A stretch of DNA of 64,000 nt from Octopus vulgaris. Its lineage: Eukaryota. The stretch is from assembly GCA_951406725.2 (NCBI GenBank), contig OX597823.1:91698001-91762000 (forward strand), read 5' to 3'. Positions within the stretch are counted from its first letter, which is position 1; every line of letters starts with the position of its first letter. The position numbers and the translations under genes are program-made. The notes below the pieces were generated by a model. The model worked only from the letters and a program-made list of their open reading frames with translations. It ran no database searches and had not been told where the DNA came from. Shown piece by piece: positions 22,834 through 64,000 of the stretch.

Positions 22834-23345
22834 GAAGGCAGCGAGCTGCCAGAATCGTTGGCACGCTGGGTGAAATGCCTAGCGGTATTTCGTCTGCCGT
22901 TACGTTCTGAGTTCAAATTCCGCCAAGGTCGACTTTGCCTTCCATCCTTTCGGAGTCGATTAAATAAGTACTAGTTACGCACTGGGGTCGATATAATCGA
23001 CTTAATCCGTCTGTCTGTCCTTGTTTGTCTCCTCTGTGTTTAGCCCCTTGTGGGTAGTAAAGAAATAGGTATTTTGTTTGCCGTTACGTTCTGAGTTCAA
23101 ATTCCGCCGAAGTCGACTTTGCCTTTCCTCATTTCGGCGTCGATAAATTAAGTACCAGTTACGCACTGAGGTCGATGTAATCGACTAAATCCGTTTTCTG
23201 TCCCTGTTTGTCCCCTCTATGTTTAGCCCCTTGTGGGTAGTAAAGAAATAAGAAACGTTAGTACCCCGGGCGAAATGCTTAGCGTTATTTCCTCTGTCTT
23301 TACGTTCGGAGTTCAAATTCCGCCGAGGTCGATTTTGCCTTTCAT
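22834..23345 (+). mobile_element. SINE family B, head-to-tail trimer
   Basis: Three units each containing TTACGTTC(T/G)GAGTTCAAATTCCGCC(G/A)A(G/A)GTCGA. Confidence 0.92.
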
Positions 23346-49806: not shown

Positions 49807-49888
49807 GTATATATATATGTATATATATACATATATATATATATATATGAAAGAATGGAGTTGAACGACTAGTTAACAAATATCCTTT

Positions 49889-49973
49889 ATTCTCGACATA
49901 TGTTTCGAAGGCTGCATATTCCTAATTCTGAAGGAATAAGGAGTACATTATGCAGATTTCTCATCAGGAAAAT
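49889..49973 (-). ncRNA. Apparently intact type I hammerhead ribozyme (GUC cleavage triplet)
   Basis: ATTTTC-CTGATGA-GAAATCTGCATA...TATGCAGCCTTC-GAAAC-ATAT-GTC-GAGAAT: 6-bp helix I, long helix II, AC/GT helix III with palindromic ATAT loop, all core nucleotides present. Confidence 0.85.
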
Positions 49974-51619
49974 CAAGGAACTTATGTCGACATCAAAATG
50001 CACAAAAAACTTTTAGCTGACCGCTCTCAAGGAGCCCATGGGGATAATGAGTGTCTCTTTATAATGAGTGACGTCAGAGTGGCTGAATGTAGAAGAATCT
50101 AGATTCTTCTACATTCAGCCACTGTAGATAGGTGTGTGAACTGGACTATTCCTCTGATAGTTACCTCTGTTAGCCATGGAAACACAGTGCAGACACAGTA
50201 ACATGGCCTACAACACCAAAAACGTCAACAACGGCCATCAATTTACGATTTGCTTAGTTCTTCATTTCCACTTACTCATTTGTGCATTTCATTAGAAGAG
50301 CAGAAAATAAAATGAAATAAGATAAAAACAAAATTTAAAAAACAACAAAACAATAGGAGTAAAACGCCAGAAAGCTATAACAAAACCGAAATTCTGCAAC
50401 AAAAGCAACGAAAATAACAACAGTCGCAGTGAACTCTGTCTTTGAAAGTAATGAGCAGTATTATAGACCGTGACAATGGCAGTCGCAACAGAAACTGCAG
50501 AATATTCTTGACGTTCTTAACTTATAATGTTAGTAACTTCAGGCAGTAGAAAACAGCAGCAATAACAACATCAACAACATCAACAACAATATTGACAACT
50601 GTTGCTCTAATTTCAACGGCAGCAATGAATGCAAAACCATTATCGATAACCACATCAACAAACAGCAACTACAAGAGCGTCGCCGTTTCGTTCCGGCTCA
50701 GAGTGTTCTGAATTTAAATACCACCGAGGTCACGTTTAACCTTCATAATTTTCAGGTTCGATAAATAAATACTAGTTCAATAGTTACTTCGATTTAACTC
50801 CCCCTAGCCTTCTGGCTTTCTGTCTTTCCTTTCCTTCTTTCTGTCCTTCTCTGACTGGTTTTTCTGAAAGACATCGGGTGTGGTCAAGCGTGGAGAAGGA
50901 TAGCCAATACTAGATTTAGTTTCATAGAAAAGCTTCTATGAGACAGTGTTGCTGGAGTGACCAAAGCATGGTGATACCACTGACCACAACGATATTAATA
51001 AGATATTGACTACAAGAATGCTACGTGTCACTAATAAACGTTGGAGTCACTTTATACCGCAACGACATGCTAGAAATAGCAGTGAAGCCATGAGAATTAT
51101 ACAGTAGCATCTCATAAAGAGATCGTAAACAATGTTCAGAATATATATGGGGTTGTCTTTGCAACAACAACAACAACAACAAAACCACCCTCAGTCAAAT
51201 AACTACACCACCACCACCGGTGACAGCGCTATTACTTCCACCGCCAGAACCTACACTGAAACCACAACAACCACCATCAACACCACCACTACTACCTCCA
51301 CTACCATTCTCACTAAGACGACCACCAATCTAAACACCACCACAACCACCACCACCATCACCACCACCACCACCCTCACCACCACCACCACAACCTCAAC
51401 CACCACCACCACAACTACCATCGCCACCACGAACAACAACAACAACAAAAACGAAAACGGTAATGTCAAATGCAACATTAATGAGAATAAAAAACATATA
51501 CATCAAAGTCCAAGAACACAAGAACAGCAACCGAAGAAGTGAAACAAGGCATTGGTTTTGATCAACAATTTATGCATAAGTCTGTCAGTATTTACGAGTG
51601 CGTGCATATGTGTACGTGA

Positions 51620-59071: not shown

Positions 59072-59490
59072 AAAGCGGCGAGCTGGTAGAAACGTTAGCA
59101 CACCGGGCGAAATGCTTAGTGGTATTTCATCTGCAGCTAAGTTCTGAGTTCAAATTCCGCCGAGATCGACTTTGCCTTTCATCCTTTCGAGGTCGATTAA
59201 ATAAGTGCCAGTTACGCACTGGGGTCGATATAATCGACTTAATCCCTTTGTCTGTCCTTGTTTGTCCTCTCTGTGTTTAGCCCTTTCGGGTAGTAATGAA
59301 ATAGGTATTTCATCTGTCTTTACGTTCTGAGTTCAAATTCCGCCGAGGTCAATTTTGATTTCATCCTTTCGGGGTGGATTAAATAAGTACCAGTTACGCA
59401 CTGGGGTCGATGTAATCAACTTAATTCGTTTGTCTGTCCTTGTTTAAACCTCTGTGTTTAGGCCCTTGTGGGTAGTAAAGAAATAGGTAT
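59072..59490 (+). mobile_element. SINE family B dimer
   Basis: Two tandem units. Confidence 0.92.
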
Positions 59491-59914
59491 TTCCTATAAG
59501 CTGTGTTAATTATGTAACCCTTTAAACTGGAAGATAAGAAAGTTCATTTTCGGTACTTGATGCTTTGGGAACCAGACAAAAATTGCTGCAGCTCGCCTGG
59601 GATGTGTTACCCTACCCTCCATATTCACCAGATATTGCTCCTTCGGATTTCCACTTATTCAGGTCTCTGCAGAACAGTCAGTCTTAATGGTAAAAATTTC
59701 AATTCCTTGGATGACGTAAAAAGATACCTTGATGAATTCTTTGCCATGAAACCACCTCAATTCTGGGAAGAGGGTATTTTCAAGTTAAAGGAAAGATGGA
59801 GACGCATTGTGCAACAAAATGGTTCATATTTAGTTGATTAAAAATGCAATGGCAAGTATTTATTGAGCTTTTTCTTTCCTTTACAAACCGGCACAAAGTT
59901 TCCGGATAACCCAA
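59491..59914 (+). mobile_element. Internally deleted copy of the 39780-41100 mariner
   Basis: Start region EDKKVHFRYLML joined at ~59565 (CTTT microhomology) to the YSPDIAPSDFHLF C-terminus and right TIR AAACCGGCACAAAGTTTCCGGATAACCCAA-TA. Confidence 0.92.
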
Positions 59915-61238: not shown

Positions 61239-62406
61239 GTATATACGTACATGTTTACACACATAAATATACATATACACATATATATATATGTATATAT
61301 ATATAAATGTATATATATAAATGTATATATGCATATATATGTATATATATATGCATGTATATTTGTATATATATATTTGTGTGTACCTATGTATATATAT
61401 GTATATATATATATATATGCATGTATATGTGTGTGTATATATATATATATATAAGAAAAGATGTGCTGATGGCAGTGCGAATGTTGGTTAAACGACGCAG
61501 GGTTGTCTCGAAGAAATATGTTTTAGAAAATAAATCTTGCGATATCAGAACGTCACGGATGAAACGGCAATACTCCTATGTAGTGTTAAGTGTTTCCCCC
61601 AAAATACATGCACAAATACAACGAAAGACTAGGGGAAAAAAATCCACGAAACTGTATGTAACATACACAACAGCAGTGACAATAACGAAAGAAACATTAA
61701 CAGTAATAAGCATAGAAATACGAAGTGATATGATTATTATCTGGCTTATTGATGTCACAGTTCTACACTACCATACACAACAACGGCATAAAAAACACTT
61801 TTATGGAGCTAAATGAGAATTTCATCACGTACGCCGTTAATGTCATAATAATTGGGGGAAACATTTTTATTACGACAACACAAGGTATTTCATATCCCGA
61901 TAAGGCTGAACGTATCGAGAAGAAAGAAGGGATTATAACATGCGTAATAATAGCATGTATCCAGAAATAAGATACGAAAAAACAGTATAAGTATTACATA
62001 ATAGAGGAAATTAGATAAGCTAGATATACGGGAGATGGAAATAAAATAGGAGAAAGGGGAACGATGTACCATAACATAGCAAAAACATACACACTCCCTC
62101 AAAAACCTATGCGCACTGACACATACGTGCATACATACATACATACACTAAAACACGCATTTATATATGTACGTGTGTGTGTGTGTGTGTATTTATGAAC
62201 AAATATATATTTAGGTAGATAGTTAAATAGATAAATAGATGAATGAATATAAGCAACCATGCGCTGTGTTACCATAAAGGAAAATATAATTGTCACTAAA
62301 TGCATTTAGTGACAATTATATATATATATATATATACACATATATATATATAATGTATGTGTGTATCTGTCTGTCTATCTCTATATCTACTTATTTCTCC
62401 CTCTAT

Positions 62407-63183: not shown

Positions 63184-63222
<39 letters not shown>

Positions 63223-63228
<6 letters not shown>

Positions 63229-63337
63229 TATATGAAAGAATGGAGTTGAACGACTAGTTAACAAATATCCTTTATTCTCTGAGAATAAAGGATATTTGTT
63301 AACTAGTCGTTCAACTCCATTCTTTCATATACTTATA
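63223..63337. repeat. Perfect 57-bp inverted repeat with 1-nt spacer
   Basis: 63223-63279 is the exact reverse complement of 63281-63337. Confidence 0.95.
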
Positions 63338-63488
63338 ATTTTTAAAATAAACATACAAATTTCCGCACGAAGACACGTAGTCTATGCCCTAGGGACGTAG
63401 CTTCAACCGTGTTCTTTCTGATGTGAATTTGCTACCCAGGTATCGGTTATCTTTCGAATTATCCTTAATAAGATAATTCATTCAATTA

Positions 63489-63558
<70 letters not shown>

Positions 63559-63648
63559 TATACATATATATATACATATATATATACATATATTTATATA
63601 TATACATATATATATATATAAAATGTACGTATATATATATATATATAT

Positions 63649-64000
63649 AGGCGCAGGAGTGGCTGTGTGGTAAGTAGCTTGTTTACCAAGCACATGGATC
63701 CGGGTTCAGTCCCACTGCGTGGCACCTTGGGCAAGTGTCTTCTACTATAGCCTCGGGCCGACCAATGCCTTGTGAGTGGATTTGGTAGACGGAAACTGAA
63801 AGAAGCCCGTCGTATATATGTATATATATATGCGTGTGCGTGTTTGTGTGTCTGTGTTTGTCCCCCTAGCATTGCTTGACAACCGATGCTGGTGTGTTTA
63901 TGTCCCCGTTACTTAGCGGTTCGGCAAAAGAGACCGATAGAATAAGTACTGGGCTTACAAAAGAATAAATCCCGGGGTCGAGTTGCTCGATTAAAGGTGG
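63649..64000 (+). mobile_element. SINE family A, young near-full copy (runs off the window end)
   Basis: GGCGCAGGAGTGGCTGTGTGGTAAG...GGTTCAGTCCC..GTGGCACCTTGGGCAAGTG...; used as the family reference. Confidence 0.93.

Follow-up and report, generated by a model that had tools for sequence, protein, structure and literature searches.

Penelope-like elements (PLEs) commonly leave inverted truncated copies, tails and junction palindromes, structures that are standard for these elements, while the formation of their inverted, tailed insertions is described as unsettled (PMC8557442; PMC3846280). Hammerhead ribozymes occur within PLE pLTRs, with in vivo evidence described as absent at the date of that report (PMC4209133). 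The Hydra clade of C-terminal-EN PLEs targets (TA)n, carries a pLTR hammerhead and shows an inverted 5′-truncated copy and a tail (Craig et al. 2021, PMC8557442), with no link from junction to cut site reported in the available part of that paper. PLEs of Adineta vaga have head-to-head inverted pLTRs and junction palindromes, with one of the arms bearing a tail (Arkhipova et al. 2013, PMC3846280). For Poseidon PAc of Anolis, purified protein nicks and extends both strands in vitro with two internal starts (Frangieh et al. 2024, PMC11167929), cleavage being dispensable, uncut RNA the main template and no RNA-seq reads beginning at the cut (PMC11167929). Outside the PLEs, the genomic 5′ junctions of R2 mirror the self-cleavage site of its HDV-like ribozyme, with non-templated bases at run-off (Eickbush et al. 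2013, PMC3774820). A preprint links animal retrozymes to PLEs, its available part leaving junctions aside (bioRxiv 10.64898/2026.07.22.740005).

A literature search with most subscription papers and bioRxiv supplements outside its scope found no paper linking PLE junctions to a hammerhead cut and none suggesting twin priming for PLEs. In the twin priming of L1, internal priming by the second target end yields an inverted arm that becomes joined to the first cDNA. The locus described here lies in a 64-kb stretch of the Octopus vulgaris genome, referred to as the window. Taken by itself its palindrome is an ordinary PLE feature, and it is the surrounding statistics that give it interest: structures of this known kind, counted genome-wide, offer indirect evidence on two PLE questions, namely in vivo cutting and insertion formation.

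The window insertion and its element

The window holds an exact palindrome with 57-bp arms at 63223-63279 and 63281-63337 and a single T between them. It is the longest among three non-microsatellite perfect palindromes in the window and a member of a repeat family, and so is not a chance structure. Element positions are numbered with +1 as the base (G) immediately 3′ of the hammerhead cut as predicted, and -1 as C17. The parts of the insert are as follows.

63188..63226, no strand: left (TA)n tract, the likely target and primer for the short arm
63223..63279, minus strand: short arm, element +57 to +1, RNA sense being the minus strand
63280, no strand: extra base T, matching neither arm's template (the template base would be G)
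63281..63492, plus strand: long arm, element +1 to about +212
63492..63649, no strand: right (TA)n tract, the likely target and primer for the long arm

The order is thus (TA)n, short arm from +57 to +1, T, long arm from +1 to +212, (TA)n, with the left (TA)n overlapping the first bases of the short arm via TA microhomology. The original prediction had set the axis of the palindrome at the predicted cut and matched the arm to a copy at 49.9 kb as far as that cut, and both statements stand: the arms are exact around the T at 63280, and 63229-63279 is identical to 49844-49894 over 51 nt, the next base being T in the one and G in the other. Its description of an inverted restart after one extra base needs extending, as the 57-bp arm is perfect but the right arm runs about 155 nt further, to about 63492. 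The first 57 nt of the long arm are the right arm of the palindrome and the remaining stretch of about 155 nt is the tail between the two priming sites. The T at 63280 would be an untemplated addition.

The same layout is family-wide, with one long and one short arm in 60 of 70 junction events and +57 the most frequent short-arm start (36/155 distinct arms examined). Beyond +212, longer copies enter the 5′ part of the ORF (L064, L069 and L164, with L038 holding that part), which makes +57 and +212 internal start sites bracketing the tail. A TA run lies within 22 nt of 109/118 long-arm ends, and both flanks in the window are (TA)n. The host genome is 2.8 Gb in size and microsatellite-rich, the window lying on its contig C10, and close element copies have 97-99% identity.

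The coding part of the element is represented by L038, a copy of about 3.6 kb with an RT (DKT, YRDD) and an EN-like part (YIGAT) in two overlapping frames. The L038 protein gave no Pfam match above the cut-off and no PDB match, its look-alikes in Atlas being eukaryotic clusters in which 16-48% of the members carry RVT_1, and it shares 42% identity with P0001, an 806-aa single ORF holding both RT and EN parts. Hydra-clade motifs read by eye are DKT, RW (with no K after it) and CxxC plus CxH in the EN, with CCHH absent. The CxCX5C linker before the EN is present in the relative P0001 and absent from L038, the one copy examined, and the element is therefore named Hydra-like and not filed as a member of the Hydra clade. 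Its layout is that of a PLE, with a pLTR on both sides of the ORF, an inverted 5′-truncated copy and a tail at one end. The reading frame was interrupted in all 6 long copies that were checked, which gives no support to the possibly active machinery that the original prediction had read into the locus.

Several neighbouring structures were also seen. Where the cysteine linker would be expected in L038, between RT and endonuclease, lies an asparagine-rich stretch (L038:4429-5508); N-rich inserts are known in rotifer PLEs (PMC3846280). At L039 (G000 C5, about 121.00 Mb) a 2.9-kb tandem duplication with the element sits beside inverted pieces of a different Penelope-type ORF. Elsewhere in the window, a zero-loop palindrome with 19-bp arms at 62284-62321 adjoins a (TA)n tract without matching the Hydra-like element and is possibly a very short twin-primed insertion from another PLE family, and at 22884-23250 and 59121-59493 a repeat of 182-184 bp, which probably belongs to a SINE-like family, forms tandems of two copies.

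The predicted hammerhead in the 49.9-kb copy

The second copy carries the element through the cut site and contains the ribozyme prediction on which the numbering rests.

49844..50103, minus strand: second element copy, beginning at the internal TA-rich site and passing through the cut site and the whole hammerhead
49883..49979, minus strand: whole type-I hammerhead, predicted from core sequence and hand-set pairing
49979-49968, minus strand: 5′ strand of stem I
49967-49961, minus strand: CUGAUGA
49960-49907, minus strand: stem II, unusually long
49906-49895, minus strand: GAAA, stem III and GUC, stem III being of 2 bp with a palindromic loop
49894-49883, minus strand: 3′ strand of stem I, starting GAGAAU
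between 49895 and 49894, minus strand: predicted hammerhead cut
49983..49990, minus strand: 5′ strand of a predicted competing helix, whose partner is -6..+2 and which would keep the ribozyme from folding
50078..50123, no strand: zero-loop palindrome with 23-bp arms in which the 49.9-kb copy ends, at a natural TCTAGA palindrome and well away from the cut site

Judged by its sequence, the predicted ribozyme in this copy has the CUGANGA and GAAA core, an NUH triplet and stems I-III of a type-I hammerhead. The Rfam hammerhead models gave no match at gathering score or at E<=10, so that the call rests on the core sequence and the hand-set pairing. CUGAUGA is present in 110/113 and GUC in 104/113 descriptor matches, a sample conditioned on the descriptor. 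Over 17 variants the hand-set structure paired 92.8% of cells, compared with 38-48% in slid controls; two-sided compensatory stem changes numbered 0 pairs in these 17 closely related variants, which showed one-sided changes only.

The competing helix (-6..+2 with -96..-89) is predicted to be dominant, at -25.8 against -18.5 kcal/mol for the hammerhead fold. Its foot lies at +1/+2, and in the youngest subfamily its pairing probability is about 0.7-0.9. Such a helix would account for most RNA staying uncut, in line with the dependence on dimers or protein described elsewhere (PMC4209133; PMC11167929).

Beyond the inverted arm at 50078-50123 lies unrelated DNA; a long arm and a second (TA)n are missing there, perhaps through later deletion. 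Two further variants of the ribozyme region were noted, the first a run of tandem units of about 255 bp, each with a hammerhead (GUA triplet), at L218-L220 (G000 C6, about 11.311-11.313 Mb), a retrozyme-like array derived from the Hydra-like element with its unit boundary at about +3/+4, near the cut site. The second, frequent in the older subfamily, is a duplication of 5 nt in the 3′ strand of stem I, immediately 3′ of the cut, which alters that stem; copies with it still show ends at +1.

Arm ends around the predicted cut

The two-arm survey took in 73 inverted junctions near the site that showed the both-arms pattern, from all subfamilies matching the anchor, every one fetched and scored by script. 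Removal of two segmental copies and the window event left 70 events, 38 of them without microhomology (76 arm ends). Sixteen of these 76 ends fall at +1 and 9 at the next highest position. The spectrum on the 3′ side is 9 at +9, 4 at +8, 3 at +7, 7 at +6, 6 at +5, 8 at +4, 7 at +3 and 6 at +2, and on the cut side the 16 at +1 are followed by none at -1 and 10 spread across -2 to -10. At least one arm ends at +1 in 12 of the 38 events, and among long-arm ends in this class (n=34) 10 are at +1 with 1 located 5′ of it. Uniform ends with AT-rich inserts and the same scoring would put 4.4 ends at +1, and 0 of 100,000 draws from this null reached 16, in agreement with the original prediction, which had proposed looking for truncations at the predicted cut; under a harsh null, which allows for a wall at this position and no peak, the excess has p=0.013. 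Scoring by hand put 17/72 ends at +1, the script being an exact-match procedure that misreads about 4 SNP-bearing events (L241, L246, L258 and L270).

Both arms end at +1 with a linker of 1-5 nt in 4 insertions besides that of the window, the linkers being AT, TA, CTTTA and A (on contigs C8 twice, C10 and C16). The number of such insertions expected is 0.07, rising to 0.3 with the harsh null (p=0.0002). Three other symmetric events without microhomology were found, at +3, +4 and +8, all with inserts of 6-15 nt. The C17-C28 events (n=23, 12 without microhomology) entered after the pattern had been written down, and here 4/24 ends by script or 5/24 by hand are at +1 and 0/24 lie 5′ of the cut, a peak with p=0.046 as scripted and p=0.32, not significant alone, under the harsh null.

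In the youngest subfamily, a one-arm survey covered 100 of 114 matches, with about 14 SNP- or indel-bearing rows dropped and a segmental triplicate counted once. Among the matches listed, +1 is the top of 29 positions with 10/82 ends (p=0.006 without the window's two arms), followed by -2 with 7 ends and -12 and -14 with 6 each. Ends at +1 were found in several subfamilies. One arm, L177, stops at +1 and resumes elsewhere in the element without microhomology, as would be expected for a template jump from an RNA end.

Other counts weaken or blur the peak. About 2% of arms stop at +1 (10 among the matches listed against at least 433 arms anchored with one 20-mer, a pattern that also matches read-through copies and serves as denominator only), which counts against a reading in terms of cutting. 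Where microhomology junctions are taken at their furthest extent, -2 (16), +5 (15) and -9 (13) rival +1 (17), and with the weight spread over positions +1 has 19.8 and the next position 12.4. Natural palindromes 5′ of the cut pull arms into the class with microhomology, which partly confounds the deficit on that side. The one-arm survey of the older subfamilies, noisy because of the 5-nt duplication variant, gave 4 of about 42 ends at +1 by eye, level with -2, +8 and -7 and flat within noise. A control search on the 5′ side (-23 to about -45) returned 18 events, nearly all at natural inverted repeats, with just 2-3 by eye lacking microhomology and none symmetric; its anchor is present in 74/93 read-through arms, making it only roughly comparable. 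The corresponding 3′ control search (12 events) was dropped as not comparable, its anchor being on both arms in 2 of the 15 test events checked.

Explanations of the junction and comparison with known systems

The reading that we consider fairly probable is of a twin-primed insertion into (TA)n, in which the two cDNAs run off a 5′ end made by the hammerhead, one base is added and the joining is head to head. A Hydra-like PLE would insert into a (TA)n tract with both target ends acting as primers, one RT starting at the internal TA-rich site (+57) and the other at the tail end (+212). The hammerhead would make the 5′ end of the RNA, both cDNAs would run off at +1, one base would be added without a template and the two cDNA 3′ ends would be joined head to head. 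The stop at +1 as a physical RNA end from self-cleavage, the addition of the extra base by RT and the mode of end joining are the steps at which this scheme goes beyond the anatomy of the locus. The concentration of joints at the predicted cut across the genome is indirect evidence that the ribozyme works in the living animal. Most templates appear uncut or read through, so cleavage would be a minority or late event. The self-cleavage footprint claimed by the original prediction is borne out as to the enrichment of ends without microhomology at the cut and the 4 further joints with both arms there, whereas cutting in vivo is an inference to which stalling of RT at an RNA helix is a live rival.

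Stalling without cleavage, in which cDNAs would stop at the foot of the helix or at a folded, protein-bound ribozyme and then be end-joined, is unlikely but the least improbable of the alternatives. The foot of the predicted competing helix coincides with the peak, the end clusters at -12 and -14 correspond to the entry to stem II and make structure-linked stops plausible, and inserted bases are about equally common at junctions away from +1 and at +1. A stall would, however, be expected at +3/+2 because G+1 is strongly paired, and the youngest subfamily has 1 end at +2 and 2 at +3 beside the 10 at +1 among the matches listed. The peak also stays at +1 despite variation of the 5′ strand of the helix between subfamilies, which favours the cut without amounting to proof. 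The empty -1 position in the two-arm survey points the same way, yet 3 ends fall at -1 in the one-arm survey among the matches listed.

The second alternative is copy-back from the right (TA)n, by which a cDNA of 212 nt would run to the ribozyme-made end, gain a base and copy 57 nt of itself, with TA microhomology joining it to the left (TA)n. This fits the window locus taken alone, a TA-rich site lies where the short arm ends, 34/71 events scored by hand make use of short natural palindromes or microhomology, and self-priming has been proposed for inverted PLE junctions (PMC3846280). We nevertheless regard it as improbable, since a 1-nt loop leaves no paired primer and the arms are independent in many copies. 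Partners were identified for 69 short arms. In 27 of these pairs the partner's 5′ end lies downstream of the arm's own start and no sequence is shared, and 48 of the 69 arms extend further 5′ than the partner, in a sample enriched for arms ending near the cut site. The non-overlapping pairs lead us to view the arms as a rule as separate RNA-templated cDNAs, products of twin priming, a view that agrees with the extension of both strands and the two internal starts seen with Poseidon PAc protein (PMC11167929). The original prediction had placed the copy-back on a cDNA primed at the left (TA)n, which fails because some 155 nt of the right arm (+58 to +212) are missing from the left arm, so that the right arm cannot be its copy. 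The suggestion that perfect arms mean a recent event was likewise rejected: +1..+51 is identical in 49% of random pairs among 123 fetched copies, and identical arms, expected about half the time, say little about age.

Chance or microhomology, by which junctions would fall at any position and be attracted to the cut by the TCGA palindrome centred there, can be given very little weight. Junctions do occur along the whole element, 4 zero-loop events are centred on TCGA and the locus was chosen after being seen, but the window joint and 4 others have 1-5 other bases in place of the G of TCGA, so that the palindrome was not used, and the excess at +1 persists with the window event removed. A library or assembly fold-back artefact, of which perfect palindromes can be a sign, is barely credible given arms that differ in length and in unique flanks, the recurrence of the 212/57 layout on other contigs with different linkers, and a single substitution between the arms of L033, a copy with that layout.

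Twin priming from a self-cleaved template is thus the preferred account of the window insertion. The broader proposal, that PLE hammerheads cut in vivo, that the cut RNA is a genuine template and that integration is twin-primed at two fixed internal sites with the cDNAs joined head-to-head, we hold to be about evenly balanced between true and false. If true, one mechanism would cover the inverted pLTR, the one-sided tail and the junction palindromes, and junction maps could read ribozyme activity out of any genome. The Hydra-like family gives a countable genomic signal, a junction peak at the cut together with non-overlapping arm pairs needing two primings, and the junction test is repeatable on any PLE-rich genome.

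Compared with the twin priming of L1, the octopus element has a second site fixed near +57 and arms that often overlap on the template. With the Hydra clade it shares DKT, RW and, at the C terminus, a GIY-YIG-like domain without CCHH, as well as CxxC and CxH around a conserved E/N, (TA)n targets, the pLTR hammerhead and the inverted copy with a tail (PMC8557442). It differs from that clade in its length of about 3.6 kb against under 3 kb, in a tail that at about 155 nt exceeds the 30-40 nt of the clade and in lacking the CxCX5C linker in L038 (PMC8557442), and the hammerhead of Hydra-1_Obim (Octopus bimaculoides) differs in sequence and marks another family (PMC8557442). R2 belongs to the LINEs, its 5′ cut is obligatory and it joins to target DNA (PMC3774820), whereas in the octopus element the joint is from cDNA to cDNA and most arms read through. 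For Adineta vaga the proposal is self-priming on an antisense template (PMC3846280), while the non-overlapping octopus arms argue for two sense-templated cDNAs. Poseidon PAc resembles the octopus element in its AT-rich targets, its start sites bracketing the tail and a hammerhead near the ORF start (PMC11167929). It differs in that a minority of genomic copies in octopus appears to derive from cut RNA, and in that the octopus insertion shows both start sites used together.
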